32,000 nucleotides of DNA from Acaryochloris marina MBIC11017 (GTDB lineage: Bacteria > Cyanobacteriota > Cyanobacteriia > Thermosynechococcales > Thermosynechococcaceae), in the NCBI RefSeq assembly GCF_000018105.1, contig NC_009925.1, forward strand, positions 5,880,001 through 5,912,000, written 5' to 3'. Of this stretch, positions 4,378 through 20,186 are shown piece by piece. Made by a program: the position numbers and the translations under genes. The number at the start of each line of letters is the position of its first letter. Position 1 is the stretch's first letter. Below the pieces are notes generated by a model. It saw only the letters and a list, made by a program, of their open reading frames with translations. It had not been told where the DNA came from and did not search any database.

Positions 4378-4411
4378 CTTTTGAAAAAAGCTCGAAATAT
4401 ATACCCTTTCA

Positions 4412-4442: not shown

Positions 4443-4493
4443 AGCTTATAAATAAAGAACATATGTACTATAATTAGGCCTAGTTGGGTATGG

Positions 4494-4546
4494 TTGGGGT
4501 AAAAATTGGGGTAAAAATAAGCCGAGCATAAGAGCTTTTACCCCAA
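4494..4546. repeat. Perfect 12-bp tandem TTGGGGTAAAAA x2 (4494-4505, 4506-4517) plus an inverted 11-bp copy TTTTACCCCAA (4536-4546), just upstream of the integrase start
   Basis: Read directly from the sequence. A partial fourth copy GTTGGGTA lies at 4483-4490. The position suggests integrase arm-type or operator sites. Confidence 0.6.
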
Positions 4547-4556
4547 GTAAGATTTG

Positions 4557-5720
4557 ATGGACACTCAAACGCCTAAAGCTAAAGCCAGCAAGGGTTCCGT
4601 TAAAATCAAAGTTTCGAATAATCGACTGCAGCTTGTCTTTTCTTGCGGTGGCAAGCGACATTACCTCAGTTTGGGCTTATCGGACTCCCAGACCCATCGC
4701 AAACTGGCGGAAATGAAGGTCAGAGCAATTGAGTTGGACATCGTTTCGGACAACTTTGATCAAACCCTTGAGAAGTACAAGCCTCAATTTACCCGAAGCT
4801 CTATTACCCCAATTACCCCAACACCACCCAACCTGCCCAGCCTTGATCATCTGTGGGAACAGTATGTTGAGTTCAAACGCCCTAGCGTATCGCCAAACTA
4901 TCTAGCAAAAGAGCTAGGGACTGCTGAACGGGTGATTAATAACCAATTACCGACGCGATCGCTAGAGGATGCCGTCCAAATTCGAGATTGGGTTGTGGCC
5001 CATAAACCTGCTAATGCGGCCAAGCGCTTAATCACTCAGCTGTCGTCTTGTTGTGACTGGGCCACCAAAAGCAATCTAATTGAGGTCAATCCCTTTAGCG
5101 GTATGGCGAAGGAACTCAAGCTTCCCAAAAATGGGAAAAAGCAACAGATCGATCCCTTTACCCAGCAGGAGCGTAATCAAATCATTCAGGCTTTTACTGC
5201 GAATCAGTATTATGGCCACTACGGTCCCTTTGTCAGCTTCCTATTTAAAACGGGCTGCCGACCGTCCGAAGCCATTGCCTTGCAGTGGAAACATATCGCA
5301 CCTGACTTCCAGCTGATTATTTTTGAGCAGTCAGCCATAGATACGGAATATGGCCTAAAAATGCGCAAGGGTTTAAAAACGCAAGAGCGTCGTCAATTCC
5401 CTTGCAACACTTCCTTACGAGACCTACTGATCACTCACCAACCCTCGGACTGTGAACCTGAACTTCTAGTTTTTCCTAGCCCAGGTGGCAAGCTAATTGA
5501 CTTTCATAATTTTCGAAATCGGGCCTGGAAAACCATTCTGGGAAACCTGAAAGAGATTCGCTACCGTAAGCCTTACCAAACCCGTCATACCTTTATTACC
5601 TTGGCCCTAGAGAATGGTTTGGATGCCAAGGATGTCGCTGGATTAGTGGGTAACTCTCCCGAAATCATTTACAAGCACTATGCCGGAACAAAGCGAGAAC
5701 TTGTGGTGCCTGAATTTTAA
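4557..5720 (+). CDS. int: Tyrosine recombinase / phage-type integrase
   Basis: Catalytic-domain motifs GCRPSEAIAL (Arg), YQTRHTFITLAL (H-x-x-R) and IIYKHYAG (Tyr). Lies immediately downstream of a tRNA gene. Track start 4554 is TTG; ATG is at 4557. Confidence 0.9.
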   Translation: MDTQTPKAKASKGSVKIKVSNNRLQLVFSCGGKRHYLSLGLSDSQTHRKLAEMKVRAIELDIVSDNFDQTLEKYKPQFTRSSITPITPTPPNLPSLDHLWEQYVEFKRPSVSPNYLAKELGTAERVINNQLPTRSLEDAVQIRDWVVAHKPANAAKRLITQLSSCCDWATKSNLIEVNPFSGMAKELKLPKNGKKQQIDPFTQQERNQIIQAFTANQYYGHYGPFVSFLFKTGCRPSEAIALQWKHIAPDFQLIIFEQSAIDTEYGLKMRKGLKTQERRQFPCNTSLRDLLITHQPSDCEPELLVFPSPGGKLIDFHNFRNRAWKTILGNLKEIRYRKPYQTRHTFITLALENGLDAKDVAGLVGNSPEIIYKHYAGTKRELVVPEF

Positions 5721-6019
5721 GGGGAGCGCTTTTTCTTTCTTCGCCTTCGAGGGGGTGGCTGATTGGAGGGCAATGCCCCCAAAAAGTTCTCAATCGCCTG
5801 GTTATGGGTGCCTTTATCCATCCGCGTTGCGGCCCAGTCTTTCATCAGCTCGACGTTATAGCGGACACAGCGGCTTGAATAGCGAACCCAGTGAATCCCC
5901 TCAATCAGTTGATTGGAAAGCCGCAGCTTTTTCAAGCTGGATTCAGAAAGACCGACAATCTTAGCGGCCTCATGCTTGTTGCACCAAACAGCGGGTTGTG
6001 AATTGGCTGGAGATTTCAT
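5717..6019 (-). CDS. Excisionase/AlpA-like helix-turn-helix DNA-binding protein
   Basis: 100 aa. HTH segment NKHEAAKIVGLSESSLKKLR followed by a W-containing wing (GIHWVRY). Its start overlaps the primase stop as ATGA (6016-6019). Confidence 0.6.
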   Translation of the reverse strand: MKSPANSQPAVWCNKHEAAKIVGLSESSLKKLRLSNQLIEGIHWVRYSSRCVRYNVELMKDWAATRMDKGTHNQAIENFLGALPSNQPPPRRRRKKKRSP

Positions 6020-8463
6020 GGTGTTGCCCTCCGAATCAGTCGTACATCCTGGCGCTCATATTCCTTCGTGATCAGCCAAGCTTTACCCTTAACTTCTACC
6101 CATCCAGGCTTTTTACGGGGAAATCCCACCACCTGCACCTGGCGACCCGTAAAATATCCCGTTAATAATTCCACCCAATCGCCTTCCTTTAGATCTGGTG
6201 CAGGAGGACTCACACCAGTTCGCTGATGGTGATGATCAAGAGACACCGACCCTTGCTCTGAGTGGCTTTTCGGGACTTGCTCACCTTGAACAGCAAGTTC
6301 ACGCCCATTAGAATCGCGTGTCTGAGCAATGGGGTGATCAGACGACAAAGATCCGTGATATATCGTTGTTGTAGTCACCTGATCCGAAGAGGTTGATTTA
6401 GGATCATCTGATACCAGCCCTTGCCTAGCTTGGGTTTCAGTCACCTGATCATCTGATTCGGGATACGTGAATATTTTTTTGCGAGATTTGCCACCGCGAC
6501 CATTATTGGCATCAACCTCTCGGATCCCTTCCGTAATATGTCCCTGTCGCCATAGCCGCTTGACCAGTCTGCGCATATGAGATTCACTACAGCTAAACTG
6601 AAGGGCCAATTCAGCAATCTCAAATGCAATGCCTGGAGCGTGCTGGAAATGGTCTAATAATCTCCCCTCAAGACCGCCTTGCCCTTGAGGAGTGCATTTG
6701 AAGTCACCGTGGTAAACAATCACACAATCATCCGGGTCATAGCTGATCACAAACTTGCCAGAACAGCGACTCCGAGATTTATTGATACTCCAGATGCGTT
6801 GGTCTTCCGGCAGGTTATCCTCTGGCTTGGGATGACGGAGGTACCAAACTTCGCTGACATTATCGGGAATGGCCGTGGTCCCTCGACTCTCCCCCAGCTT
6901 GTTTGTGTGATGAAGAATCAAGAATGTACAGCCATAGGTATTGGCGATATTCCGCAAGTCATAAATACAAGCCCCATAGTTGGTATCCTTCTCCGCTAGC
7001 TCACTTGCCCGATTAGCAGCCGTAAAGGAATCGATAATCACGAGAGTGGGTTGTTCTTGCTCAATCCAGCGGGTGAGCTGGGGCAGTTGGGAAAACTGCC
7101 ATTCCGTCTCCACCTGCACCATCCCCGGCTGAAACTGCTCATAATTGGCATCCCGTAATGAATCCGAGAAATCTACATCCGGCTCATCGGTTTGGATAAT
7201 CAGAACCTTGCCCTGAGTGGTCCGAAAACCATTCCAAGATTGGCCAGAAGCCACAGCATAGGCCAAATCATAACTCAGCCGACTTTTGCCTGTGCCTCCA
7301 TCCGCAATCAAGGCAATGGTGCTGGCCTTGGGAATCTTGCCCGCAATAATCCACTCTCGACTTTCAGGAGCACGAGCGAGGAAATCAACAACGTCCATTG
7401 GTGCAAAGGGACGAGCACATTCCAAGCGCGTCTGGTGGATTTTGCGAAGTTGAGCAGTTGAGAGTTCAGCCCGTTTTGCTAACCGATTCAACTCCCACAG
7501 TTGGCGAGCGGTATCTTCAATCTGAAGGATTTCGTCAATCTTTTCCAGACACTGCTCATAGTTGAGCCGGGTATCATGAGTCTTATGATTGGGCCGAGTG
7601 GCCTGTCGTGCAGCAGCCTTAATTTGGCTCAAACTACAATCCGCATTCAGAGCATCGCTGATATCCCATCCCTTAGGAATGGGGGTCTGGTTAAAAGGCA
7701 CTTGAGCAATCTTAGCTCTATGTCCCAACTGCAGGGCCAGCTTTTCAGCCCCCTTTTGTCCTGGTGGATCCAGGTCATAGAAGATCGTGACTGGGCCGGG
7801 TAGGCGTTGCAGCTGCTCAGTTGGCGGAATGACATTACAGCCACAGGTGAAGGTTGAGATCGCAATCTTTGTATCGTCTCGCATCGCCCAACCCAGCAAG
7901 ATCGCATCCCATTCCCCCTCACATAGATAGGTCTGCTTAGCTGCCTTGGGCTTATGGGTAAAGTAGACCATTGCAGGCAGCCCTTTCTGAGACCAGGTAG
8001 GTCTATAACTCCAAGGTTCAATTCTGAACTTTCGATAGTAACGAGTATCTTGATCATCTGCAGGAATAGGAATGACAATTCCGGCTCGACCATGATGAGT
8101 CACTAAACCTAAACGATAGTGTTGAATTAGCTCAGGGGTAATCCCTCGATTTTTCAACCACTGTTGCGCTTGTCCTCGTTTACCGTCATTGCCATTCAGC
8201 AGCCAATCGGTAGTCGTCTGCAGTTGATCAGGGGTATAGATCAACGGTGAATTTTGATTCGCCAAGTCCAAGGATGAGGTTTTCTCTATGCCTAGGCTGT
8301 CGCGGATTTCTTCAGGGGTACAGCCTGCATGACACTTGTACGCTCCACTGTCTAACAGAGCCAAGCTTTTCTGGGATGGACGACGGCCCTTTTTACGACT
8401 GCAGCTAGGACAGTACGCTCGTCCGCTAGCGTTGAAATTGATAAAGTCTTGAATCTCAAACAT
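6016..8463 (-). CDS. Bifunctional DNA primase / RepA-like (AAA_25-type) helicase with a C-terminal wHTH and KOW/SH3-like tail
   Basis: Zn-ribbon CPSCSRKK...YKCHAGC. Toprim acidic motifs YLCEGEWDA and FYDLDPPGQ. Walker A ADGGTGKS, Walker B LVIIDSF, LILHHTNK. Track start 8475 is TTG; ATG at 8463 (MFEIQDF) is preferred. Confidence 0.85.
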   Translation of the reverse strand: MFEIQDFINFNASGRAYCPSCSRKKGRRPSQKSLALLDSGAYKCHAGCTPEEIRDSLGIEKTSSLDLANQNSPLIYTPDQLQTTTDWLLNGNDGKRGQAQQWLKNRGITPELIQHYRLGLVTHHGRAGIVIPIPADDQDTRYYRKFRIEPWSYRPTWSQKGLPAMVYFTHKPKAAKQTYLCEGEWDAILLGWAMRDDTKIAISTFTCGCNVIPPTEQLQRLPGPVTIFYDLDPPGQKGAEKLALQLGHRAKIAQVPFNQTPIPKGWDISDALNADCSLSQIKAAARQATRPNHKTHDTRLNYEQCLEKIDEILQIEDTARQLWELNRLAKRAELSTAQLRKIHQTRLECARPFAPMDVVDFLARAPESREWIIAGKIPKASTIALIADGGTGKSRLSYDLAYAVASGQSWNGFRTTQGKVLIIQTDEPDVDFSDSLRDANYEQFQPGMVQVETEWQFSQLPQLTRWIEQEQPTLVIIDSFTAANRASELAEKDTNYGACIYDLRNIANTYGCTFLILHHTNKLGESRGTTAIPDNVSEVWYLRHPKPEDNLPEDQRIWSINKSRSRCSGKFVISYDPDDCVIVYHGDFKCTPQGQGGLEGRLLDHFQHAPGIAFEIAELALQFSCSESHMRRLVKRLWRQGHITEGIREVDANNGRGGKSRKKIFTYPESDDQVTETQARQGLVSDDPKSTSSDQVTTTTIYHGSLSSDHPIAQTRDSNGRELAVQGEQVPKSHSEQGSVSLDHHHQRTGVSPPAPDLKEGDWVELLTGYFTGRQVQVVGFPRKKPGWVEVKGKAWLITKEYERQDVRLIRRATP

Positions 8464-8608
8464 ATAAATGCCCAACGCAAAACCTATCTGCTAGGCAGTT
8501 CCATGGATAAGACACCTGCAGAAAGCTAATTTCTTTAAACAGTATATATGTACTATTTCAAAAAAGGATATTCATGCAGAATAGTCATATAATTCTTGGC
8601 ATGAGTCA

Positions 8609-9295
8609 GTGGTGGATATCCCCATGCGTAAGGTCTTTAATGCAGATAGTTTTACGGGTCGAATGGCCATCTTGGTGGATGAGTATAAAAATGCCACTCA
8701 TCTCGCCAAAGTGGTCGGCGTGAATGACCGAACGATCCGAAAATGGATGGCGGGAACGGAACCCGCTCGAAACTATCTGGAGCTATTGGCTGAAAAGCTT
8801 GAGGTCAATATCGAATGGCTGGTACTCGGTCGGGGACCTATTCGGCGGGCGGATGGGGGGATTGGTGATGGCACTTATGTCCAAATCCCTCTCTATGATG
8901 TTCGAGCGGGGGCTGGGGAAGGCATGATTGCGGAGGACAAGGAGCAGATCGAGGAACTGATGGCGTTTAGTCGATCCTGGATTCGTAGTGAATTACGTAC
9001 TAGCCCAGCTCATTTGAGTTTGATTCATGTCAGTGGAGATTCGATGGAACCAACTCTGCGACCTGGGGATGTGGTGCTGGTGGATCAGCATCAAGCGGAA
9101 GGGGGGACGGATGGGGTTTATGTGTTGCGTCGGGATGGGCATTTGCAGATTAAACGTCTGCATTGGTTATCAGGGAAAGTTTTGAAGATTATTAGTGATA
9201 ACCCTATCTATCAGCCGATTGAGGTGGATTTATCTCAGTTGACGGAGGAGTTTCAGATTATTGGCCGAGTGATTTGGGGCGGGAAGCGGTTTTGA
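8609..9295 (+). CDS. CI/LexA-type repressor (XRE HTH plus S24 peptidase domain)
   Basis: HTH THLAKVVGVNDRTIRKWMAG. S24 Ser/Lys dyad context GDSMEPTL ... LQIKRL. Divergent from the primase gene. Start is either GTG 8609 or ATG 8624. Confidence 0.85.
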   Translation: MVDIPMRKVFNADSFTGRMAILVDEYKNATHLAKVVGVNDRTIRKWMAGTEPARNYLELLAEKLEVNIEWLVLGRGPIRRADGGIGDGTYVQIPLYDVRAGAGEGMIAEDKEQIEELMAFSRSWIRSELRTSPAHLSLIHVSGDSMEPTLRPGDVVLVDQHQAEGGTDGVYVLRRDGHLQIKRLHWLSGKVLKIISDNPIYQPIEVDLSQLTEEFQIIGRVIWGGKRF

Positions 9296-9453
9296 GCTTT
9301 GGTAATTGATGCAGGGTTTTGATGACTACTCCGCTCTTGAAAATCCAGACACACTGTTTGGTGAACACTTGGAAGCTATAGCCCGCCAACTTTAATGCTC
9401 ATCACCGGATAGCAAAACTAGCTAAAGCGATGGAAATGGCGAATCAGGATAAT

Positions 9454-9927
9454 TCAGCTTCTAGCTAGAAGTTGGTCAATCTGAACGAGCGCTTCTTCCA
9501 ATTGGCTGACGATAGAGCGGGTAATCATCAACCCTCCTTCAACTAGTACGGTGCCATTGAGTGGATGGAGAATTGGTTGTTGTACCCTTTTACCTATCAG
9601 AGCATCGAGATCTTCAATCTCACTGAGATACATACCCGCAGGCAGCTCTACGACAACACCTTCTCCAAGAACTCTGGCTTGGCAGGCCAAGCGAGAATTA
9701 TCCTGGCAATTTGAGAGCAGCTCTAGGGTTTTTAGCTCTCTCTTACTTTTAGGTGACAAGCTCTCCGTACCAGACTGGATATACACATGACAGGTACTAC
9801 AACGCCCCCGACCACCACAACTCCAATTAACATTTAATTCCTGCTGGAGCAACATGGACAGCAAGTTTTCATTGGTTTTGACGGAAACCTCATGATCGAT
9901 GGGCTCCAACTGAATTTGTTTAGGCAT
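9454..9927 (-). CDS. 2Fe-2S ferredoxin-like protein with a ~60-aa C-terminal extension (copy A)
   Basis: Cys pattern C37-x5-C43-x2-C46-x35-C82 (CGGRGRCSTCH ... RLACQ). Paralogous over its full length to 11534-12016. Start set at ATG 9927 (MPKQIQLEPI) by alignment with the paralog; the track start 9999 would overlap the upstream gene. Confidence 0.8.
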   Translation of the reverse strand: MPKQIQLEPIDHEVSVKTNENLLSMLLQQELNVNWSCGGRGRCSTCHVYIQSGTESLSPKSKRELKTLELLSNCQDNSRLACQARVLGEGVVVELPAGMYLSEIEDLDALIGKRVQQPILHPLNGTVLVEGGLMITRSIVSQLEEALVQIDQLLARS

Positions 9928-9979
9928 GATGGATGAACGTGTAGGCGATTTATGCAGACAGGAACGACTTAATCTTGGC

Positions 9980-10996
9980 TTAGCCGAAGAGATTTTCAAC
10001 TAACATGGGGTCGTCAGATTCTTCGTTGCTCATGGTCTCAGAGACAAGGTCATGAAGATTCAAGCTGACTTCACGAGCTTTCTCATACTGGTCAAGCTGA
10101 CCTGCCTCAAAAAAGAGCTTTGCTGCAACATGCAAGTCATCAACGGCACGTTGTTTTTGACCTAACTCAGATGCCATGATCCCTCGTTCAAAATAGGCCT
10201 CCGCATAAGAGGGTTTCAGTTGGATCGCCCTTGAAAAATCGTTCATCACCGTTTCTTGGTCTTCATTGCGTTGCAGGCGTTTTCGAATTACCCCGCGCTG
10301 ATAGAAACTTTCTGCAACGTTTGGCTCGTCAGAAATGGCCTGGGTAAGTGTATCAATTGCACGTAGAGTTTCCAGGAGTTCTTGAACACCCTTCGTTTGG
10401 GCTGCTATGAGTTGGGATTGATTCTGTTGAGTCTCAACTTGATTACTCAGATCCAATGTCGTTGATTGAAGGAGTGCGATTGCATTATGAAGATCTTCCA
10501 TTTTGGAGGACAGGTCGTCGAACTGAGTGACTGCTGAGCGTTGTTGCTCGCTCAACGCAGCTAGCGATGAATGATTTTGATCTTGAAGTTGGTTGAGACT
10601 GCTAATTTCCTCTCCCATTTGTGTAGTACGAGTGGTCAACCCTTGAAGAGCCTCTGAGGCTTGGGTATCTTGCTCATGTAATTCGTCTAACTTCAATTGA
10701 AGTTGTTCATTATTCTGCTGAGCCTCAGACAGCTCATTTCTCATGGAGTCAGTGTTTTGTTGAATCAAAAGGGATACTTCAACCCGCTGTTGTTCCAGCA
10801 TCTTCCCCGTTTGACGACGACGGTTAGCCAAGTTGATGGTCGCAGTCAGCGATAGGGGAATCATAACCATTGCAATTTGCTGTGACACTACAGCAGCAAC
10901 GGTTCCCCCAATGGAGGACACCACAGCTAGAGTTTCCGCAAGATCAAGCCAGTGAGATGTTTTTGTTCTTCCGTTCGTTTCTTTTGGCGACTGCAT
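9980..10996 (-). CDS. Membrane-anchored coiled-coil / TPR-repeat protein
   Basis: N-terminal hydrophobic segments (LAVVSSIGGTVAAVV, MVMIPLSLTATINLA). A ~170-aa Q/E/L-rich heptad region. C-terminal TPR-like repeats (AESFYQRG..., YAEAYFERG...). Confidence 0.65.
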   Translation of the reverse strand: MQSPKETNGRTKTSHWLDLAETLAVVSSIGGTVAAVVSQQIAMVMIPLSLTATINLANRRRQTGKMLEQQRVEVSLLIQQNTDSMRNELSEAQQNNEQLQLKLDELHEQDTQASEALQGLTTRTTQMGEEISSLNQLQDQNHSSLAALSEQQRSAVTQFDDLSSKMEDLHNAIALLQSTTLDLSNQVETQQNQSQLIAAQTKGVQELLETLRAIDTLTQAISDEPNVAESFYQRGVIRKRLQRNEDQETVMNDFSRAIQLKPSYAEAYFERGIMASELGQKQRAVDDLHVAAKLFFEAGQLDQYEKAREVSLNLHDLVSETMSNEESDDPMLVENLFG

Positions 10997-11042
10997 AATT
11001 GAGATACCCTTAAAAATTATTTGATAAAAATTTGATTACGAA

Positions 11043-11510
11043 TTAGCTTAATAAAGCCTGATTTAGATGAAGTGCTGGCATCATCAAATCTGTTTCTTCA
11101 GCGGAAAGATGCCCTCTTAAAACCTCTGGCATCTCCCTCCAAGTTAATGTAGAGGCCTGTTCATCCTTGACGGCTCGAACAATAGTGCGCTGCCACAGGA
11201 GAAGTCCATCCCTGAGTCGATCCAGGTCATTAAAGAGCATGGCGGTTGCGGCATACCGCAAGGTATTTTTCCGATCCCGACGACAGGTTTCTGAGTAGTC
11301 TTTGGGGCCTTTACAAAACACTTGCGGTTCAATATCCGTTAGTTGAACCTCAGAGTCGTCCATAATGGCGTCTTCAGCATCCCGAATCTTTTCATAGCCA
11401 CTGATGCGCTGGCCAACGTCTTGAAGATAAGACTTTACGCAAGCTAACTCGGCATCAGTGGCATACCGTCCATCGGCCTCAAGGCTAATGCGCTTTAGTT
11501 GTGACAACAT
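11043..11510 (-). CDS. Phycobiliprotein-fold (Pfam Phycobilisome family) protein, copy B; retains a Cys-x-Arg-Asp bilin-site-like signature
   Basis: SLEADGRYATDAEL resembles the phycobiliprotein N-terminal AD-x-GRYL-x3-EL motif. TCRRDRKNTLRYAATAM resembles KCARDIGYYLRMVTY around Cys84. GGGGGAA lies upstream of the ATG. Confidence 0.7.
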   Translation of the reverse strand: MLSQLKRISLEADGRYATDAELACVKSYLQDVGQRISGYEKIRDAEDAIMDDSEVQLTDIEPQVFCKGPKDYSETCRRDRKNTLRYAATAMLFNDLDRLRDGLLLWQRTIVRAVKDEQASTLTWREMPEVLRGHLSAEETDLMMPALHLNQALLS

Positions 11511-11533
11511 AATTCCCCCAATATTGATCTGGA

Positions 11534-12016
11534 TTAAACAAGTTTTGAATGGGCTAAATGGGTGACCACATCACTACGAGTCACCTCCAATTGGCTAATC
11601 ATGGAGCGGGTAATTAATTTCCCTTTTTCGACTAAGATGCGACCATCCAGTGGGTGAAGGATGTTTTCGTCTGCTCGTCGGCCGACTAAGCTCTCAATCT
11701 CATTCATATCGCCCAGATACATCCCCGCAGGAACCTCAACCACGACCCCATTGCCCAGAACTCGACATTGGCAAGCTAGTCGAGAAGTTATGGTACTGGT
11801 GGTAATTGCCCCCAGCGTTCGCTGTTCACGACGGCTAATGGGCGACAACTGCTCCATCCCTTCCGTGATGAAGATATGGCAGGTTGCACACATGCCCCGC
11901 CCCCCGCATTCTTGCAGAACTGTCAGCTCATTTTTAAGTAAGGCTGAGAGCACATGATCGTTGGTGGTGACACTGGTTTCTTGACCGAGGGGGTCTAGCC
12001 TAACTATCTTCGCCAT
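11534..12016 (-). CDS. 2Fe-2S ferredoxin-like protein with a ~60-aa C-terminal extension (copy B)
   Basis: CGGRGMCATCH ... RLACQ, with the same C-x5-C-x2-C-x35-C spacing as copy A. Shared extension motif ILHPL-G-x-LVE-G-x-ITRS-x-SQLE. GGAG lies upstream of the ATG. Confidence 0.8.
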   Translation of the reverse strand: MAKIVRLDPLGQETSVTTNDHVLSALLKNELTVLQECGGRGMCATCHIFITEGMEQLSPISRREQRTLGAITTSTITSRLACQCRVLGNGVVVEVPAGMYLGDMNEIESLVGRRADENILHPLDGRILVEKGKLITRSMISQLEVTRSDVVTHLAHSKLV

Positions 12017-12076
12017 TGCTCCATACTCCGAGATTGATGTTTCATCAGTATTGACATCCTCTGGTCTGGATAACGT

Positions 12077-12754
12077 CTAAGAAGCTACAGTTCCAGGTTG
12101 AGCGGTACACAACCGAGCCAGAATGGTGTCATGGTCTTGTGCTTCCGCTAACCAGGCTTGTGCCACTTTGACTCGTTCCGGCAATCCCAGAATGAAATAG
12201 TTCCATTCAGCCTGCATCGACTCGCAGGATGTTTGCACACCGTCCAACTCTCGACCGGTCAGTTGGCTGAAAAAGGCACTCAGTAGCCCCACTTCAATAA
12301 GGCATGAGGGACGGTCTTGCACATTCCTCGTTTTGGCAAAAGCAGAATATTGGGTCTTAACGACTAAGAACCCCTGTGAATAAGCTCCAAAATCAAAATC
12401 GATAAGGCCCCAACCATAGGTTTTCCAGCACTCCTTGAGGGATTGCAGAAATTCCACCATTTCCATTTCAGCTAGCGTTTTGCCATAGTATTGGCTGACC
12501 TCTGAGGTGAACCGTCGATAAAAATTCTTTCCCCACCAACGACCACATTGCTTTAAGACCACATCAGCAGCAGGTCCCACCTCATGCTCCAGGCTTTGAT
12601 TCAATGCGTTTAAAAACGTCTCAGGGAGGGCGATGAGTCGTGCCCCTTCCCGATTTTCAATTAGGCCTAACTCTGTATCTCCCTGGACATAGTGCTCAGG
12701 GGCAAAATAATTGCCTGGGATATGTTGATTGATTAATTTCTCAGCAGCTAACAT
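12077..12754 (-). CDS. V4R-domain (4-vinyl-reductase-type small-molecule-binding) protein, copy B
   Basis: 225 aa, paralogous to 13635-14351. C-terminal block CLIEVGLLSAFFSQLTGRELDGVQTSCE corresponds to the V4R core, but the distal Cys residues are lost. Confidence 0.6.
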   Translation of the reverse strand: MLAAEKLINQHIPGNYFAPEHYVQGDTELGLIENREGARLIALPETFLNALNQSLEHEVGPAADVVLKQCGRWWGKNFYRRFTSEVSQYYGKTLAEMEMVEFLQSLKECWKTYGWGLIDFDFGAYSQGFLVVKTQYSAFAKTRNVQDRPSCLIEVGLLSAFFSQLTGRELDGVQTSCESMQAEWNYFILGLPERVKVAQAWLAEAQDHDTILARLCTAQPGTVAS

Positions 12755-12773
12755 GTGATTTTTTCTCTAACCC

Positions 12774-13262
12774 TTATGCCATAACGACTAATTCACGGTT
12801 TTTATCTATGCTCACCAAGTGGGTGTCTATGCGTTGAATAAAGGGCTCTAGCAATACCAGTTGCTCTTCATTCAAGATGGAGCGCAAACATTGTTTGAGA
12901 AATAGACAAATATTGTGGTTAATCGCATTTAGGTCATCCCTCCTCAAAATTTCTGCATAGAACTTAAGCTGATTCTCTAGATAGTCGGGCTGATCCATCA
13001 GCATTGCCATGGCAGCGTATCTGAGCACCGAAATCCAACGAGTCAACATTTGTTCTAAGGTCGCTTGAGGAATGTTGGATGCCTCTTTTTGTAGTTGATG
13101 AGCCACGACTTGGAATATGGTTAACTCCTGATCCCGCAGGGCTTCATAGAGTGTGAGTCGGTCTTGTAAGGCCCCCACCTGTTGCTTAAATTGATTCATT
13201 TCAGTGGGTTGTAGATAATGATCCTCTGCTGTCCGCAGTAGATCTTCAAATTTAGATTGCAT
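12774..13262 (-). CDS. Phycobiliprotein-fold protein, copy A; lacks the bilin-site Cys
   Basis: TAEDHYLQPTEM and VLRYAAMAMLMDQPDYL align with copy B and with the phycobiliprotein helices. Start set at ATG 13262 (MQSKFEDLL), preceded by GAGGG; track start 13274 is TTG. Confidence 0.6.
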   Translation of the reverse strand: MQSKFEDLLRTAEDHYLQPTEMNQFKQQVGALQDRLTLYEALRDQELTIFQVVAHQLQKEASNIPQATLEQMLTRWISVLRYAAMAMLMDQPDYLENQLKFYAEILRRDDLNAINHNICLFLKQCLRSILNEEQLVLLEPFIQRIDTHLVSIDKNRELVVMA

Positions 13263-13299
13263 AGCTACCCTCAAAAAAGTTCAGAGAAATCATGGAGCT

Positions 13300-13638
13300 T
13301 TAATTCATCTCCCTCAGCATTTGGAAACAAATTGACTGGGATGGGAGAAACGGTGATGAGGGGTGACCTCCCCAAGCGAAGAATTGAAAGAAATCTGTCA
13401 CGGATAACCGTGTGGAGAACTCCTTTGACCTGGAGTGAACCCGTGATTCCTTAGTAGGCTGCCCAGTCCAGTTCAATTGGCTGAAAAATGTTTGTACAGA
13501 TTGTCGCGGCCAAGATTTTTGAAGGTTGCTAGGGGTGGAGTGGTTAGCAGATCCAGAAACTTGTTGCTGACCTGACCAATTACATGTGCCTAGAAACTGA
13601 CCAACCGTTAAAGATCGCCACGATATAGAGGTACTCAT
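13300..13638 (-). CDS. Hypothetical protein with three tandem ~34-aa repeats
   Basis: Repeats LTVGQFLGTCNWSGQQ / QSVQTFFSQLNWTGQP / LSVTDFFQFFAWGGHP. The ATG overlaps the upstream V4R stop as ATGA (13635-13638), implying translational coupling. Confidence 0.55.
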   Translation of the reverse strand: MSTSISWRSLTVGQFLGTCNWSGQQQVSGSANHSTPSNLQKSWPRQSVQTFFSQLNWTGQPTKESRVHSRSKEFSTRLSVTDFFQFFAWGGHPSSPFLPSQSICFQMLREMN

Positions 13639-14351
13639 GCTAAGTATTCTCCATCCCGCAAACGAGTAGCGATATCCTTGGCATTTGCCCCTTCGTTCTG
13701 CCAGAAGGTAGCCGCGTCAATTCGATTCTTCTTACCCAGTAAGAATTTGCAGTAGGTTTCACCCATGGCATAGCATTGCGTTTCAATGCAACTCAACTTC
13801 TTTTGAGTGAGTTGACTAAAGAACCCTGCAAATAACCCCGCATAAATATGGCAAACAGGCTTGCCGACATCTCCAAGGGTGCGAGCCACAGCAGAATCAA
13901 AGATATTGATGAACATGAAGCCATTGGTTTGGTCTTCAAGATCCACTTCCCAATTCCCCCATCCTTGACTTGTAAAGGGCCACCACCATGCTTCTAATGC
14001 AAGGGAGGGACGTGCCATTCTTACAGGTTTTTGAAATTGCTGTTCAAACCAGCCCTGAAAAAAGGCCGCATCTTGCTTACCCCATTCATGGCCGATGTTA
14101 TACATCACCACAGAGGAAGCCGATCCCACTTCCTGTTCTAAGCCATTGATCAGCGCAACAATGAAGTCTTCACTGGCCAAGATATTGCGTGAGTCATGCC
14201 AGTCCTCAATCGTGCCGTCAGAGCGATTGAAGGTAAAGAAATCCTCAAAGCGATAGTGATTGAGCTTCTGAGGGAATAATTCTTTAGAAGAATATTGTTT
14301 TTGAATGCAGTTTGAGGGCGCACTACTCAATTCTGCTGGTGCAAGAACCAT
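13635..14351 (-). CDS. V4R-domain protein, copy A
   Basis: 238 aa. C-terminal V4R-like core VCHIYAGLFAGFFSQLTQKKLSCIETQCYAMGETYCKFLLG, with the Cys pattern typical of V4R/BchJ-type domains. First gene of the operon. Confidence 0.65.
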   Translation of the reverse strand: MVLAPAELSSAPSNCIQKQYSSKELFPQKLNHYRFEDFFTFNRSDGTIEDWHDSRNILASEDFIVALINGLEQEVGSASSVVMYNIGHEWGKQDAAFFQGWFEQQFQKPVRMARPSLALEAWWWPFTSQGWGNWEVDLEDQTNGFMFINIFDSAVARTLGDVGKPVCHIYAGLFAGFFSQLTQKKLSCIETQCYAMGETYCKFLLGKKNRIDAATFWQNEGANAKDIATRLRDGEYLA

Positions 14352-15369
14352 AGAGAATAACCTTTTATAATGAAAATATTACGGGAATAAAAATATTGCG
14401 ATTACGGTTGAACGCTAAACAGTAGAAATTATAGATAAGCGGCTAACATTCGCTATTATCCTTAGCAAATCAACCTGCAAATATCAGTTTTATTTACTGC
14501 TTTAACCATTGAGTTAAAACAGCTCAAAGATTGTCGAACAATCAGTATTATTCCTAAATGATAATTCTGATAAAAGCTGATAAAATCAGCAATTCCACTT
14601 ATTTATATTTCTTTACAAAATAGCATGAAAGTAAGATGTTTGTATTTAAGAAATATTGACTATTTCAGAATAAAATCATTCTCTCTGGCCATTATTTTTC
14701 TTTGAATATCGCTTTATTTGTAAATTCGCCTGTTTTTATCTAGAAATCTTATTTATTTCCTTGTTGCAATGATTTAGACAATTACAGTAAATCCAATATC
14801 TCTGGCACATCAAAAGGATTTTAAGATTTTTTATATAGAGCCATCGAATACAAGTAGTTCAAGATACAATTGTTAGCCTTGTTTCTCCGTAAAATTACGG
14901 ATAGATTCACCACAAAATGCGGTAGACGCGAGGGCGATATGGCCCAAATTTCTTAAATCCTTAAAGTGGAACTCAATGGTCAATGGCTACAGCACTGTTT
15001 CCCTCAAACCAGTACAGGGTAGAAAACACGAAAAAAATTACGGATTGCACTAAACATTTGTCAAAAATAGATTGGCAAATGCATCTCATCCAGATGAATC
15101 ACCATACTTATTGCTTGTGTTCCTGAGTATGATCACAGGAGAAATACTAATATTCCTACAATAATTGCATAAAAATAAAATATAGTTCATTGGATGGAAT
15201 AATCAAATATAGGCATTAGATGAAGCTAAATCACTCTCACCCCCAAATAAAGGTCAGGGATAATACGGTTTAATTAACTCTGAGAACAAAATAAAATCAG
15301 TAGTGAGGAATATCTATAAAGCTTTCCTCATATTACTGATGCAAGTTCCCCTGATTAATCTGAGTTCTA
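14352..15369. promoter_or_regulatory. 1-kb AT-rich non-coding spacer between the divergent V4R operon and the 105-aa gene; carries four ATTACGG heptamers
   Basis: No ORF of 60 aa or more on either strand. ATTACGG at 14378-14384, 14401-14407, 14894-14900 and 15037-15043. Palindrome CCGTAAAATTACGG at 14887-14900. Confidence 0.35.
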
Positions 15370-15687
15370 ATGTTGCAAGTTACTGATATATCCGTTTTTT
15401 TTCAAAAGAATACTTCTGATATTCCAGATGATCATTTCGAGACGCCTAAGAAAATAGCTGTTATTGAGTCCTGGACTGCAATACAAAGGGGAAAGAGTGT
15501 TGTTATCAAAGGAAGACTCCTGGGCCATCCTAATTATCCCGACGGGGTTAAGATGATGACCTCAACAGTCTATCGTTACTTAGCGGGTGATGGTCACGTA
15601 TACATCAAAACTCAAAATTCCCTATATGAGTTGGGTCAACCTCTGAAGACAACTGATTTCCAAAAATTAGAACGAATGACCCAGTAA
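15370..15687 (+). CDS. Small conserved hypothetical protein (paralog of 24420-24776)
   Basis: Shares VIESW-x-I...V[VI]I[KR]GR...HP-x-YP-x-G...G-x-VY-x-T-x-NS-x-YELG-x-P with the second copy. Confidence 0.6.
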   Translation: MLQVTDISVFFQKNTSDIPDDHFETPKKIAVIESWTAIQRGKSVVIKGRLLGHPNYPDGVKMMTSTVYRYLAGDGHVYIKTQNSLYELGQPLKTTDFQKLERMTQ

Positions 15688-15939
15688 GAAATTTCATTCA
15701 TCATTAATGTAGACTACAAAGTTGGTGGCCAAAAGGTCTGAGTTGAAGCAACATAATAGATATTGATTCTTTTATATGTTCTATCAGATAAAACCAACTG
15801 TTGGAACGACTAAATATCGGTGCGTTAGCTCTTGAAAACGAAATAAATTATTTTTCCCAGATTCACAAGTCATCATTAATCTAATAAGGGCTTGCTTCGG
15901 AAGTCTAAGTTCCAATATTTGCAGTGTATCCAAGTGTTG

Positions 15940-17600
15940 AGGGCCCTTGAGAAGTGCAAGGAAAATCATTCAAAATATTTAAAACCCTTGCACCTGCAAC
16001 CCGATGTATCGCCGTCCATCCCCCGGTCAACTGTCCTTTGAGAACTTCTACTTGCCCTTTGGAGGGAAACTTTCAGGAGAGAATCGCTGGGTCAAACTAG
16101 CCGAGTTGATTCCTTGGGAGAGCTTTGAGTCAGAATATGCAGACCAATTCAGTCAGACCATGGGGGCACCTGCCAAACCCTTTCGTGTGGCCTTAGGGAC
16201 CTTAATCATCAAAGAGAAACTGGGTATATCCGACGCAGAGACCGTAGAACAGATTCGAGAGAACCCCTACTTGCAGTACTTTCTGGGGTTTAGTGAATAT
16301 CGAGAGAGTGCTCCGTTTGATGCCTCCATGCTGGTTCACTTTCGCCAACGGTTGAATCTAGAGCTGCTAGCTCAAGTCAATGACGCAGTCGTGGACTCTG
16401 TGCTGGCATCCGAGGGGTCTCCTGTGGCGATGTCCCCTGAGTCATCTCCTCCCTCTGACGATGATGAAGATGAGCCTCCTGCCCCTCCCAACCAGGGCCA
16501 ATTGTTGATAGATGCGACCTGTGCACCAGCCGATATTCGCTATCCGACAGACTTGGATTTGCTCAATGATGCCCGCAAAGCAAGCGAAGCCATCCTCGAT
16601 GCTTTATATGCTCAAGTCATGCTGTCCCTCAAGTGCAAACCTCGCACCTACCGCCAGAAGGCCCGCAAAGCCTATCTGGCCATTGCCAAAAAACGTCAAC
16701 CGAGCCGCAAGCTGATTCGTAAAGGGATTCGTCAGCAGTTGGGCTATGTGCGTCGCAATCTAGCCCATATTGATGGGTTGATAACATTGGGGGCTTCCCT
16801 ATCCCAATTGTCCCGGCGGCAGTACCGTCTGTTGCTGGTGATTCATGAAGTCTTTCGACAGCAAGAATGGATGTATCAACAGTCAGTACGTCGAGTGGAC
16901 GACCGGATTGTCAGTATGAGTCAGCCTCATGTCCGACCGATGGTCCGAGGCAAAGCTGGAACACCCGTTGAGTTTGGAGCCAAGCTATCCCTCAGTTGTG
17001 TGCGTGGATGTGTGTTTCTGGAGCGCTTGAGTTGGGATGCGTTCAATGAATCCCAGCATCTTCAACATCAAGTGGAAGCCTTTCGTCGTCGCTTTGGCCA
17101 TTATCCTTTCTCAGTCCATGCTGACCAAATCTATCGGACTCGGGCTAATCGACGATGGTGTAAAGCTCGGGGGATTCGCTTGAGTGGACCGCCGTTAGGA
17201 AGACCTCAACAAGACCCACAAGTACAGACCCAACTCAAGCAACAAGCGTGTGAGGATGAAAAGGTGAGGGTCCAGATTGAGGGTAAGTTTGGGCAGGCCA
17301 AGCGACGGTTTGGCTTGAATCGAGTGATGGCGAAGTTAGCGGATACGGCTGCCAGTGCGATTGCTATCACGTTCTTGGTCATGAATCTGGAGCGGTGGCT
17401 CAGCCACTTTTTATCGTTCATTTTTGGGGTGGGATTGCTGGTTTTGGAAAGCGTTATGGAGCTGTCAGGACTTCCTTGGGGCTTTGCTAGGGCCAGTCAA
17501 AGGATATGGCTCTGGCCGTCACAAATGGGTTGCTTGTACGATTTGATGCATGGAATTTGCTCAATTTACTTTCTCAGCAAACCCTAATAAAAGGGTTAAC
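15940..17600 (+). mobile_element. IS5/IS1182-group insertion sequence (boundaries approximate)
   Basis: Single long DDE-type transposase ORF. Tentative imperfect terminal repeats are GGGCCCTTGAGAAGTGCAA (about 15940) and the reverse complement of TTTACTTTCTCAGCAAACCC (about 17575-17595). The ends are not resolved and no target duplication was identified. Confidence 0.45.
16004..17587 (+). CDS. IS5/IS1182-family transposase
   Basis: 527 aa. The N-terminus SFENFYLPFGGKLSGENRWVKLAELIPWE is typical of the InsH-N (DUF772) transposase domain. The rest is a basic-rich DDE region. Confidence 0.8.
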   Translation: MYRRPSPGQLSFENFYLPFGGKLSGENRWVKLAELIPWESFESEYADQFSQTMGAPAKPFRVALGTLIIKEKLGISDAETVEQIRENPYLQYFLGFSEYRESAPFDASMLVHFRQRLNLELLAQVNDAVVDSVLASEGSPVAMSPESSPPSDDDEDEPPAPPNQGQLLIDATCAPADIRYPTDLDLLNDARKASEAILDALYAQVMLSLKCKPRTYRQKARKAYLAIAKKRQPSRKLIRKGIRQQLGYVRRNLAHIDGLITLGASLSQLSRRQYRLLLVIHEVFRQQEWMYQQSVRRVDDRIVSMSQPHVRPMVRGKAGTPVEFGAKLSLSCVRGCVFLERLSWDAFNESQHLQHQVEAFRRRFGHYPFSVHADQIYRTRANRRWCKARGIRLSGPPLGRPQQDPQVQTQLKQQACEDEKVRVQIEGKFGQAKRRFGLNRVMAKLADTAASAIAITFLVMNLERWLSHFLSFIFGVGLLVLESVMELSGLPWGFARASQRIWLWPSQMGCLYDLMHGICSIYFLSKP

Positions 17601-17937
17601 ATCTCACCAAGACCTTATAACCGCCACTAAGAGATGTGCCGTTTGACTGCATCTTCATTGCTTAGCTGAGACGATTCCAGACCACAGATAGCATGTTAAA
17701 ACTCGTGAAAAATCTTGCAGGGCTAGCGATAGCTCCAGGTGGTGGCAATGCGTGAGACATCGCAATGCAGTGCATCAGTTACCCGAAAGCAAGAGTTTTC
17801 TTGGGGGATGAATATCACTATTTGGAGGTTATGCAGGGAAAGGATTTCAGGCAGAAGCGCGATGTTCTATTGAAATGCTCCTGCTGGTCCTAGTTCGGTG
17901 GTATTACTCAGGGCACCTAGCTACGCTTTTTTAGATT

Positions 17938-18198
17938 ATGGAAATATTAGATAGCCCAATTGCCAGATGTTCCCATATACTGATGAGCTCCCCATCCCAA
18001 CAACAATTGATTCACTACCTCCAAAGCGATTTAGGCGTTTCTGAAAAAGCGATTGATCTTGCTGTGCGTCTTCAACAGCCTTTACAGGGGCCGATTCATA
18101 TCCTTCTATGGCAGTATGGCTTGATTGACATCGTACAGCTTGGCAAAGCTATTGAGTGGTGGGTGAATGAAAGAGAGGATGTCACAAGCAGGGGATGA
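17938..18198 (+). CDS. DUF2949-type small cyanobacterial protein
   Basis: LIHYLQSDLGVSEKAIDLAVR...ILLWQYGLIDIVQLGKAIEWW matches my recollection of the DUF2949 pattern. The true start may be the internal ATG at 17983. Confidence 0.55.
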   Translation: MEILDSPIARCSHILMSSPSQQQLIHYLQSDLGVSEKAIDLAVRLQQPLQGPIHILLWQYGLIDIVQLGKAIEWWVNEREDVTSRG

Positions 18199-18717
18199 TG
18201 CAATTGCTTCCTTGCCAATCACTGATCAGTCAAGACCTTAATCTGCGAATCTTCCTTAGATCAGGTAGTCAGAACTGATATTCCCATAAATTGCTAGTTT
18301 CTCTAGGCTATAGCTTTAGTATTTTTAGGCTTTCAACAAAAATCGCCTCATGATCTGAGGCATTGCAAAGTAAGCCCCATCCGTTCAACGCTGAACATCA
18401 GAAAAATTTGTCTGATTCAGCAAATTATTTCTCCTCAAAACCACGGATGTTTCGACAAATTTATATTTTGTTTAGAAATTATATTGAGTAATTTCCCTGT
18501 CGTCAGGGGGATGGGATAAAAGCCACGATCAAGGGAGTGCAGCAGGGTACCCCTGTTTGGCCAATATCTTCAGTTGGCGTAAAGTTCGTGTGTCTCATTA
18601 TGAATAGTTCCCACTTGAGAGAGTTAGTGAAACACCTAACCAATTTTGAAAAGAACGGTCTTTGCCCAAACCTATATAGCTTGGTCGAGCTGGGTCAACT
18701 AATCAGGAGAGAACGTC

Positions 18718-20184
18718 ATGAGTAATCCATTCGCTCAGCTGCTGGCCCAGCAATTACACTGTTTAGTCAAAATGAGGAATAGCCAACCTCATCAGGAGCG
18801 AGGGTTCGCGCTTCCCCTTGCCCTAGGGTTGGGCTTCATCATGATCTTGCTGGGGATGTCCTCCATGATCATGGCGCAGAGTGATCGGATCACCGCTTGG
18901 AATCGAAAAGAATCTGGTGCAAGTTTGGCTATATCAGAAGGAGGAATGGCTCGTACCCTAGCCCAGCTTACTCAAACGGATAACCGGATTCTCTTGACTC
19001 GAAACTATGACACCATCAATCCCAAGACCGGAACCACCTATCTCGGACCTGATGGCATTCTCAATTCTGGGGATGAAGAGTCTGCCACAGTGGATGAGTG
19101 GACAGGGTATACGGGCAGTAGCTCAACGCCCTGTGATGCAAGTGCAACGACAATCACACCGAATGTCACTCTTTCTGGAGCAATGAATTCAGGGGGCCAG
19201 TATGAGCTTAAAGCCTATCGTTATAATCCCACGGATCAAACCGGGACACTCCTCGTTGAGGGTCAACATGGAGAGAGAATATCCCATATTCTCTCTACCT
19301 TGGTCATCCAGTCAGAGATTGAGAATTTCCCAGGGGTTCTGGCCATGCAGGGAGCCGTTATTCGAGGACGTACTCTTATTGGTCAACATGCCAATCTTTA
19401 CTATGATCCGTCCTGGTCCGCGGACACCAGCTTAACGGATAAGTCAGCACCGAGTGATAGCGACCGTGCGAGCTATCTCAATGCGGTTTACTCAACAGCG
19501 CAAGATGGTCCAGGTAATGATTTGATTGCTGGCAACATTGTGGGATGCCAGATTACCCAAACACTGTCGGTGGATTTACCCGCAACGGTGACGAGTTTAG
19601 GTGAAGTTAAGAGTAGCACCACTCTTACTGCAGCCAACAGCCCCTACCATATCGAAGAACTGGAACTGGATGGTACCGATGTCGTTACCGTGGACACGAC
19701 GGATGGTCCTGTCTACCTGTATGTCACTGAATCCTTTGAATTACGAGGCAATGCTCAACTGAGAAATATCCGCACGGATGGCGAATCTCCACGAGTGGGT
19801 GATTTGAGGATTATTGTTCATAATGCAGGCGCTGGAACACCTCCCATCGAACTGTACGATCAATCCTGCATTGACACCGCTTTTGTCTATAACAAGATTA
19901 ACGACCTCCAGCTACAAGGTTCAGGTGATGGCTGTCCCAGTAGCGGCAATACTAACTTTGATGGGGTGGTATGGGTCGAAGATGTCGTCAGTTCCATCAA
20001 CATCAGTCCCCATACCCGAATCGTGCCTGCTGAGGATGATGACATCATCACGACGAATGGCAGTACATCCGGCATTCGGGTGCCCAACGATGTGTCCAGT
20101 CTGGCTGATGTCGTGAGTGGTATTGGTATCACTCCGACGAATAAATTTGGCTATGTCAAAAGTTGGCAACGGGTGAGGTTGTAG
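18718..20184 (+). CDS. PilX-N-like pilus-associated protein (large minor-pilin-operon component)
   Basis: N-terminus QERGFALPLALGLGFIMILLGMSSM resembles the PilX N-terminal segment. It is followed by a Thr/Ser/Gly/Asp-rich extracellular-type region and sits first in a prepilin gene cluster. Confidence 0.55.
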   Translation: MSNPFAQLLAQQLHCLVKMRNSQPHQERGFALPLALGLGFIMILLGMSSMIMAQSDRITAWNRKESGASLAISEGGMARTLAQLTQTDNRILLTRNYDTINPKTGTTYLGPDGILNSGDEESATVDEWTGYTGSSSTPCDASATTITPNVTLSGAMNSGGQYELKAYRYNPTDQTGTLLVEGQHGERISHILSTLVIQSEIENFPGVLAMQGAVIRGRTLIGQHANLYYDPSWSADTSLTDKSAPSDSDRASYLNAVYSTAQDGPGNDLIAGNIVGCQITQTLSVDLPATVTSLGEVKSSTTLTAANSPYHIEELELDGTDVVTVDTTDGPVYLYVTESFELRGNAQLRNIRTDGESPRVGDLRIIVHNAGAGTPPIELYDQSCIDTAFVYNKINDLQLQGSGDGCPSSGNTNFDGVVWVEDVVSSINISPHTRIVPAEDDDIITTNGSTSGIRVPNDVSSLADVVSGIGITPTNKFGYVKSWQRVRL

Positions 20185-20186
20185 TC

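Follow-up and report, generated by a model that had tools for sequence, protein, structure and literature searches.

We analysed a 32,000-nucleotide stretch of the Acaryochloris marina MBIC11017 genome (NC_009925.1, positions 5,880,001 to 5,912,000; hereafter the window), which carries at 9454-14351 a cluster of eight genes that we compare here with the pap operon, slr0144-slr0151, of Synechocystis. The eight open reading frames (ORFs) all lie on the minus strand and are all intact. From 5' to 3' they encode a V4R protein (V4R-A), a 112-aa repeat protein, a globin lacking a bilin-attachment cysteine (the Cys-less globin), a second V4R protein (V4R-B), an adrenodoxin-like ferredoxin, a bilin biosynthesis-associated globin (BBAG), a membrane-anchored coiled-coil/TPR protein and a second ferredoxin (Table 1). 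The spacings between them, in the same direction, are -4, 37, 19, 60, 23, 46 and 52 nt, the first being an ATGA overlap of the V4R-A and repeat-protein genes at 13635-13638. The genes are thus compact and co-directional, which is consistent with a single operon. An earlier note on this DNA, made from the sequence alone, had described this packing and the overlap and was correct in every particular. Its assignment of V4R, Phycobilisome, Fer2 and TPR domains also held when the proteins were searched with profile hidden Markov models, in the case of the Cys-less globin by way of hhalign.

The two V4R proteins match different Synechocystis 6803 proteins. V4R-A is 62% identical to Slr0144 over its full length (E 1e-116) and 25% identical to Slr0147, whereas V4R-B is 51% identical to Slr0147 (BAA18547, E 4e-81) and 29% identical to Slr0144. 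The V4R proteins fell below the BchJ model TIGR02019 (24.8 bits against a cut-off of 74.3), to which the C-terminal V4R domain alone aligned. The two are 31% identical to each other and the two globins about 28%, and by this low identity within each pair they are old paralogues rather than a recent tandem duplication. Both pairs are ancient and have been kept in nearly all cyanobacterial copies of the cluster.

The BBAG carries the motif C76-R-R-D, and CxRD is present in most aligned members of its family. Its AlphaFold model (pLDDT, the predicted local distance difference test score, 85.9) matched allophycocyanin subunits in a Foldseek search of the PDB, with a TM score of 0.83, at 14-24% identity to solved phycobiliproteins. 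The protein is 41% identical to the one at the slr0149 position in Synechocystis salina. The Cys-less globin is 43% identical to the protein at the S. salina Slr0146 position, and as a single sequence it scored 22.1 bits against the Pfam Phycobilisome cut-off of 22.2. We built a profile of its family from 22 aligned positional orthologues. Compared with the BBAG family in hhalign, this gave a probability of 99.2% (E 2.8e-19, 153 columns), and its top PDB profile matches were all phycobiliproteins, the best being allophycocyanin beta (1.9e-6). As the profile-level match supports the borderline Pfam score, we assign this globin to the phycobiliprotein fold. Its family has (K/T)HW at the site where BBAGs carry CxRD. 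The BBAG family alignment also contains distant cyanobacterial homologues, for example of the Leptolyngbya type, in which a tryptophan replaces the cysteine of CxRD (W-K/Q-R-D); some cyanobacterial 'BBAGs' are, by their residues at this site, apparently incapable of attaching bilin covalently there.

Both ferredoxins have cysteines 37, 43, 46 and 82 in the adrenodoxin-type spacing C-x5-C-x2-C-x35-C, and they are 52% identical from end to end, including the shared tail of about 60 residues that the earlier note had pointed out. The first shares 65% identity with Synechocystis Fed5 (BAA18548, E 2e-70). Against TIGR02007, the equivalog model for the ferredoxin of the iron-sulphur cluster (ISC) system, the two scored 50-56 bits with a cut-off of 132; they appear to share the fold class of ISC ferredoxin without being ISC ferredoxins. 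The PDB relatives of the first ferredoxin (E. coli Fdx 1i7h and putidaredoxin) cover residues 1-97 only. The tail is conserved across the Fed5 family, and a PDB sequence search found no solved relative of it. A structure model of the extended ferredoxin was poor (mean pLDDT 53.8), with only tail residues of about 100-150 reaching 71-91; in that model the tail is predicted to form short strands and a long terminal helix.

The second ferredoxin is 59% identical to Synechocystis Fed5. Its relatives of at least 72% identity all come from Acaryochloris or Acaryochloridaceae, the next being canonical 160-aa Fed5 proteins at no more than 64%, and in a rough neighbour-joining tree it fell outside all sampled Fed5 orthologues. 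In the canonical Acaryochloris copy of the cluster, and in other genera, the TPR gene is not followed by such a gene. It thus appears to be a lineage-specific Fed5-like paralogue restricted to Acaryochloris. A plant-type Fed4 was not found in the cluster: just 46 nt separate the BBAG gene from the TPR gene, and both ferredoxins are of the adrenodoxin type.

The 112-aa protein contains the three repeats that the earlier note had seen, of the form W..(L)(S/T)V..F(F/L)...(N/A)W.G. It matched no Pfam or NCBIfam model, and a protein database search likewise returned no hits. Direct comparison showed 34% identity to the Slr0145 orthologue of S. salina (E 9e-10), and tblastn together with synteny revealed a positional homologue in 51 other loci. 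The gene is unannotated in RefSeq for the copy on plasmid pREC3, and the collection searched does not call it as a gene in the copy of the chromosomal island. The Slr0145 family as a whole is uncurated, with no Pfam or NCBIfam model; its members have two to four W..LSV..FF...NW.G repeats followed by an acidic C-terminal motif, (D/E)LxLxDLSDLF. The window protein lacks this DLxLxDLSDLF-type motif, which nearly all other family members have, including those encoded by two copies in Acaryochloris metagenome-assembled genomes (MAGs; L067 and L003) that are closely related to the canonical Acaryochloris copy.

The TPR protein, likewise read correctly as a membrane coiled-coil/TPR protein, has a hydrophobic stretch at residues of about 19-55, then a coiled-coil-like region and TPRs at about 237-294. 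Residues 207-332 are 35% identical (E 6e-20) to the 'slr0151 family photosystem II repair protein', a name taken from the source annotation of relatives in its 90% cluster.

We then compared the gene order with that of other genomes. Searching with a BBAG alignment of nine sequences, one genome per species, yielded 68 loci, which were examined by tblastn with the eight window proteins. The order V4R-A, (repeat protein), globin, V4R-B, Fed5, BBAG was found in 43 of the 68 cyanobacterial loci. The taxa include Acaryochloris, Thermosynechococcaceae, Pleurocapsales, Chroococcidiopsis, Crocosphaera and Synechocystis. The TPR gene comes next in nearly all of the 43 loci where the contig reaches far enough. 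Six loci of the Microcoleus/Planktothrix type have the same genes split in two divergent halves, and five Thermosynechococcus loci (L006-L009 and L011) are reduced to V4R-A followed by two adjacent BBAG-like globin genes, with no V4R-B or Fed5 detected beside them. The slr numbering was anchored by the S. salina locus, where proteins share 90%-identity clusters with BAA18547 (slr0147) and BAA18548 of PCC 6803 and where the relatives grouped with the TPR protein bear the name 'slr0151 family photosystem II repair protein' in their sources. That locus has a 111-aa plant-type Fer2 protein at the slr0150 position and a 654-aa Ser/Thr protein kinase at the slr0152 position.

V4R-A, V4R-B, the first ferredoxin, the C-terminal domain of the TPR protein and, by way of the S. 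salina orthologue, the repeat protein gave reciprocal best matches with Pap proteins of Synechocystis. Because direct comparisons and synteny agree, seven of the eight genes can be taken as orthologues of pap genes in the canonical order, and they are one-to-one counterparts of Slr0144, Slr0145, Slr0146, Slr0147, Slr0148, Slr0149 and Slr0151. We consider it likely, with a probability of roughly 85%, that the locus is an accessory, paralogous copy of the pap operon (slr0144-slr0151), carried as cargo beside a tRNA-Arg integrase module and having a role in photosystem II (PSII) assembly or repair.

Table 1. Genes and other features of the window around the pap-like operon
Feature	Position	Strand	Basis
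V4R protein, clade A (V4R-A), Slr0144 orthologue, 238 aa	13635-14351	-	Pfam V4R, E 4e-26
Small repeat protein, Slr0145 family, 112 aa	13300-13638	-	Repeats, position, direct comparison
Phycobiliprotein-fold globin without bilin-attachment Cys, Slr0146 orthologue, 162 aa	12774-13262	-	Pfam Phycobilisome, 22.1 bits (borderline), and profiles
V4R protein, clade B (V4R-B), Slr0147 orthologue, 225 aa	12077-12754	-	Pfam V4R, E 9e-8
Adrenodoxin-like 2Fe-2S ferredoxin, Slr0148 (Fed5) orthologue, 160 aa	11534-12016	-	Fer2, E 1e-9
BBAG, CRRD at Cys76, Slr0149 orthologue, 155 aa	11043-11510	-	Pfam Phycobilisome, E 1e-12
Coiled-coil/TPR protein with membrane anchor, homologous to Slr0151 in position and C-terminal domain, 338 aa	9980-10996	-	TPR_9, TPR_11, TPR_17
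Second Fed5-like extended 2Fe-2S ferredoxin, last gene of the operon, 157 aa	9454-9927	-	Fer2, E 6e-12
AT-rich region 5' of the operon and co-duplicated with it, presumed promoter/5' untranslated region	14352-14906	-	Similarity to pREC3 copy
tRNA-Arg(CCG)	4305-4378		ARAGORN
Tyrosine integrase	4554-5720	+	Pfam Arm-DNA-bind_2 and Phage_integrase
AAA_25 primase/helicase-like protein, 819 aa	6016-8475	-	Pfam AAA_25
Helix-turn-helix/S24 (LexA/CI-like) repressor	8609-9295	+	Pfam Peptidase_S24 and HTH_3

Much is known of this operon in Synechocystis. Rast et al. 2016 (PMC4853703) trace the name Pap, for photosystem II assembly proteins, to Wegener et al. 2008, who gave it to the eight products of slr0144-slr0151. 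These genes make up a single operon (PMC4853703, PMC9145668), with which slr0152/spkG is co-transcribed. Interactions among Slr0144-Slr0149 on thylakoids have been validated by affinity purification and mass spectrometry (Xu et al. 2021, PMC9880817). Slr0151 is a TPR protein intrinsic to the membrane; it binds CP43 and D1 (PMC4853703), and efficient PSII repair depends on it. Loss of the slr0144-slr0152 operon lowers PSII activity and slows growth (reviewed in PMC9145668). Phosphorylation of Fed5 disappears in an spkG deletion mutant, and a 2018 study ties it to SpkG and Slr0151 (PMC11863333 among the sources). Cassier-Chauvat and Chauvat (2014, PMC4284462) described the arrangement as 'cluster e' (hypothetical, 4VRa, allophycocyanin-beta-like, 4VRb, fed, allophycocyanin-alpha-like, fed, TPR), in which Fed5 (slr0148) is adrenodoxin-like and Fed4 (slr0150) plant-like, and put variants without fed4 on record. 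In Acaryochloris itself, Partensky et al. (2018, PMC6002478) found that the 'apcA' genes are homologues of slr0149 with homologues of slr0144-0148 and slr0151-0152 adjacent.

The origin of the cluster has also been traced. Rockwell, Martin and Lagarias (2023, PMC10151467) derived the cyanobacterial cluster consisting of a BBAG with two V4R proteins plus an Fe-S protein, exemplified by slr0144-slr0149, from pre-PcyA bilin reductase clusters of heterotrophic bacteria, which contain a ferredoxin-dependent bilin reductase (FDBR) and a heme oxygenase. They reported that it has been lost in many cyanobacteria and 'duplicated in others', and that adjacent genes such as slr0152 are often missing in other cyanobacteria. 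The window cluster has in common with theirs a CxRD BBAG, one V4R protein of each clade and an adrenodoxin-like Fe-S protein. Like all cyanobacterial versions it differs from the pre-PcyA ancestors in having no FDBR or heme oxygenase, and to their core it adds the Cys-less globin, the repeat protein and the TPR protein.

Compared with the pap operon of Synechocystis PCC 6803, the window has the same seven orthologues in the same order but is missing both Fed4, which would separate the BBAG and TPR genes, and SpkG, which would come after the latter. Their place is taken by the second Fed5-like ferredoxin, encoded behind the TPR gene, and the next gene along, which is convergent, is that of the S24 repressor rather than of a kinase. 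The window TPR protein has a longer coiled-coil segment, the repeat protein is without the C-terminal acidic motif, and the whole copy, one of several in the genome, sits on a mobile element. The plant-type ferredoxin is likewise missing from the otherwise complete 'cluster e*' of Cassier-Chauvat and Chauvat (2014); the window differs from this variant in the extra adrenodoxin-like ferredoxin appended after the TPR gene.

The mechanism we propose builds on what the literature has shown for the Synechocystis orthologues and is extended here by inference to the window copy. By analogy with Slr0144-Slr0149, which co-purify in Synechocystis, the soluble Pap proteins would form one thylakoid-associated complex. 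Within it the two globins may pair as alpha and beta do in a phycobiliprotein monomer: the CxRD globin would carry one bilin (at Cys76), and the Cys-less globin, which seems to keep the full fold including the N-terminal helices, would act as its alpha/beta-like partner. The clade-A and clade-B V4R proteins could together hold a hydrophobic ligand of the tetrapyrrole type. The Fed5-type ferredoxins may supply or sense electrons, and their conserved tail is a candidate docking element. The TPR protein, if it behaves as Slr0151 does, would anchor the ensemble at the membrane and contact D1 and CP43. The expected outcome would be that PSII intermediates are stabilised during assembly and repair.

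Several points weigh against assigning this role to the window copy. The PSII role and the thylakoid complex are established for Synechocystis, while the Acaryochloris pap genes are known as sequences, so the assignment is by analogy. Even in Synechocystis the photosystem phenotypes may come about through slr0150-slr0152 and not through the core genes (PMC10151467), and the introduction of PMC4853703 mentions a competing assignment of the operon to photosystem I. The TPR protein can be aligned to Slr0151 over its C-terminal third only, the N-terminal two-thirds remaining unaligned. The Slr0145-like protein could be impaired, lacking as it does the family's C-terminal motif. Finally, the window operon is without Fed4 and SpkG. 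The missing Fed4 does not exclude membership of the pap family, because the published 'cluster e*' variants also lack fed4 (PMC4284462).

The strongest alternative is that the six core genes (two V4R genes, two globin genes, fed5 and the repeat-protein gene) are a relic of a bilin-biosynthesis or bilin-handling module that came from heterotrophic bacteria and serve bilin metabolism, storage or sensing independently of PSII, and that the PSII phenotype stems from the TPR protein and its neighbours. The descent of the cluster from pre-PcyA clusters with an FDBR and a heme oxygenase speaks for such a relic. So does the finding that BBAG-1, BBAG-2 and BBAG-3 of other bacteria bind bilin autocatalytically, without a lyase, in a paper that also cautions that slr0150-0152 may be what accounts for the PSII function (PMC10151467). 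The window BBAG still has the CxRD motif, and a planctomycete locus with a V4R gene, a phycobiliprotein-like globin gene and a V4R-like gene has no TPR gene. In most cyanobacterial loci, on the other hand, all the Acaryochloris copies included, the gene after the BBAG gene is that of the TPR protein. This near-universal linkage argues for a shared function of the TPR protein and the core, but does not settle the matter. The lower PSII activity and slower growth that follow loss of slr0144-slr0152 and the lack of an FDBR and a heme oxygenase in the window also count against a bilin relic. We regard it as unlikely, though it deserves to be taken seriously, and continue to favour a pap operon that serves PSII.

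The surroundings of this pap copy are those of a mobile element. A tRNA-Arg gene, a tyrosine integrase, a primase/helicase-like protein and a repressor are encoded next to the operon (Table 1), with a 100-aa ORF between the integrase and AAA_25 genes. In this company the operon looks like the cargo of an integrative element. By its gene content 4305-9295 is, we suggest, the backbone of that element, with the pap-like operon as the first cargo. Neither the window nor the fetched loci contained an attR, a direct repeat of the tRNA-Arg 3' end. The window from 1043 to 15720 is 99.9% identical to the chromosome of A. marina MBIC10699 (AP026075.1, at about 2.73 Mb), and the same arrangement of the tRNA, integrase, primase/helicase-like and repressor genes recurs in that chromosome.

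MBIC10699 holds at least three further pap copies, a canonical chromosomal one and one each on pREC3 and pREC2. The canonical copy lies among housekeeping genes and consists of seven genes without the second ferredoxin, encoding proteins of 237, 117, 161, 223, 160, 155 and 338 aa. The first seven genes of the window operon have the same order as the canonical copy, with about 70% DNA identity and protein identities from 40% to 80%; the Slr0145-like protein is 112 aa in the window and 117 aa there, and the window copy lies instead beside an integrase. The pREC2 copy is about 70% identical; in it an ISL3 element precedes a further ferredoxin gene.

The pREC3 copy is much closer, being 97.7% identical over window positions 10949-14906. 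It is interrupted between the BBAG and TPR genes by IS21-like (istB) and IS110-family elements (L001, 9413-13714), its annotated TPR ORF is shortened to 314 aa, and the copy is probably impaired or transcribed as two separate units. Similarity between the two copies spans 9462-14906, that is, the operon and 555 nt upstream, and these limits suggest that the operon with its 5' region was the unit that moved. From V4R-A through BBAG the two copies are 99-100% identical (dS no more than 0.035), while their last ferredoxins show 88% protein identity with a dS of about 2.3, which is saturated (window 9454-10959 compared with L001 7951-9448). A diverged last ferredoxin beside near-identical genes suggests that the copies are mosaics whose recombination breakpoint lies close to where the TPR gene ends.

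Further exchange is visible upstream of the operon. About 10 kb of the window (15720-25667) is absent from the otherwise 96-99.9% identical MBIC10699 chromosome. It encodes an IS5-family transposase (16004-17587), a DUF7305 protein (18718-20184) and proteins with a prepilin-type N-methylation motif. Part of it, 17786-23248, is 96.9% identical to the region adjoining the pap copy on pREC3, a likeness that points to exchange between chromosome and plasmid around the operon.

Given this context, the window copy might be a redundant passenger of a mobile element that is decaying to pseudogenes. The IS21 and IS110 insertions that break the pREC3 copy would fit such a fate, as would the repeat protein, without its C-terminal motif and not called as a gene. 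The coding sequences tell otherwise. Where dS was measurable against the canonical and plasmid copies, dN/dS ranged from 0.05 to 0.16; the V4R, Fed5 and BBAG genes had values of 0.05-0.06, and the TPR gene reached 0.16. Intact ORFs together with low dN/dS indicate that this copy is under purifying selection and is functional rather than decaying. As the eight ORFs are also found intact, in the same arrangement, across several independent sequencing runs, we think decay very unlikely.

It is tempting to see the accessory pap copies of Acaryochloris as a functionally diverged, horizontally mobile version of the operon and not as redundant duplicates, but this is a speculation in which we place little confidence. 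On this view they pass between chromosome and plasmids and bring along a deep-branching Fed5-like ferredoxin of their own instead of Fed4 and SpkG, as well as an Slr0145-like protein that has lost the conserved C-terminal motif. One possibility is that the diverged copies are tuned to chlorophyll-d PSII or to particular light or oxygen regimes. If the copies have diverged in this way, they would be a natural experiment on what the V4R/BBAG/Fed5 core does. Genomes with several diverged and selectively kept copies could in any case help to dissect the role of the V4R/globin/Fed5 core, and photosystem-associated accessory operons can evidently travel on integrative elements and plasmids in Acaryochloris.

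The earlier note had proposed that the cluster is an undescribed tetrapyrrole-linked redox or sensing system built of two duplicated heteromeric units. It was right about the domain content, and a link to tetrapyrroles and a membrane tether provided by the TPR protein both agree with the literature on the orthologues. However, this architecture has appeared in print several times from 2004-2008 onwards, with Acaryochloris covered in 2018, so it is not an undescribed system, and the remark that its author knew of no characterised system with this organisation is answered by the work on the pap operon (PMC4853703, PMC4284462, PMC9145668, PMC10151467, PMC6002478). Nor is the operon duplicated within itself: the V4R and globin pairs are the ancient ones found in most cyanobacteria, not the mark of two heteromeric units. 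Among the paired genes the second ferredoxin alone is lineage-specific. The canonical partner is another protein, the plant-type Fed4 of Synechocystis. A novel system of two duplicated units is, on this evidence, highly improbable. The sequence was read correctly and the claim to novelty was incorrect; the operon is named, partly characterised by genetics and proteomics, and placed in evolution. What is new here is minor in detail: the mobile-element context, the exchange between chromosome and plasmid, the second ferredoxin, the truncated Slr0145-like protein and the purifying selection.

That the phycobiliprotein-like genes might encode light-harvesting allophycocyanin subunits of an antenna cluster, as the source annotation of the BBAG ('allophycocyanin subunit alpha ApcA') and its fold match imply, is scarcely credible, given scores of 27 bits against the NCBIfam ApcA equivalog cut-off of 270 and 24 against 228 for ApcB, the low identity to solved phycobiliproteins, the lack of linker, lyase, apcB or apcC neighbours or any antenna genes in the window (the earlier note had also seen no antenna locus here), the weak fluorescence of the characterised BBAGs of other bacteria (3-7% quantum yield, PMC10151467) and the published view that the apcA annotation in Acaryochloris is probably wrong (Partensky et al. 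2018, PMC6002478). The names 'allophycocyanin' and 'ApcA' on BBAG genes are wrong and keep propagating.

The region upstream of the operon (14352-14906) has a GC content of 0.36. A scan of 9200-15400 gave no convincing sigma-70 consensus, with fewer promoter-like matches than in shuffled sequences (7 against 11.2); terminator-like matches exceeded the shuffles (10 against 5.0, sd 2.7), but none coincided with an operon boundary. An HLR1-like direct repeat of the RpaB type, TTTATATTTCTTTACAAA, lies at 14602-14619, with one mismatch and 268 nt upstream of the first gene. HLR1 matches with no more than two mismatches occur in 10 of 53 orthologous upstream regions, where 2.7 would be expected from shuffles. 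We considered regulation of the operon by RpaB through HLR1 and rejected it as a claim, as an enrichment of this size is too weak to carry it.

Two further loci are of interest. The planctomycete locus, from a Gemmataceae MAG (L068, 2273-8130), encodes a Ser/Thr kinase with tandem kinase domains, a V4R protein, a 321-aa protein without a Pfam hit, a phycobiliprotein-like globin, a V4R-like protein and a ParA-like ATPase, and no TPR protein. It has no Pfam-recognisable FDBR or heme oxygenase and adds nothing to the published pre-PcyA link; its kinase beside V4R and globin genes echoes spkG in Synechocystis. In the window itself, 26878-31155 encodes STAND/AAA_22-type NTPases and a TrwB/FtsK-like protein (nSTAND6, nSTAND_NTPase5, TrwB_AAD_bind), and these genes may belong to the cargo of the island that carries the pap operon, with functions in defence or conjugation.

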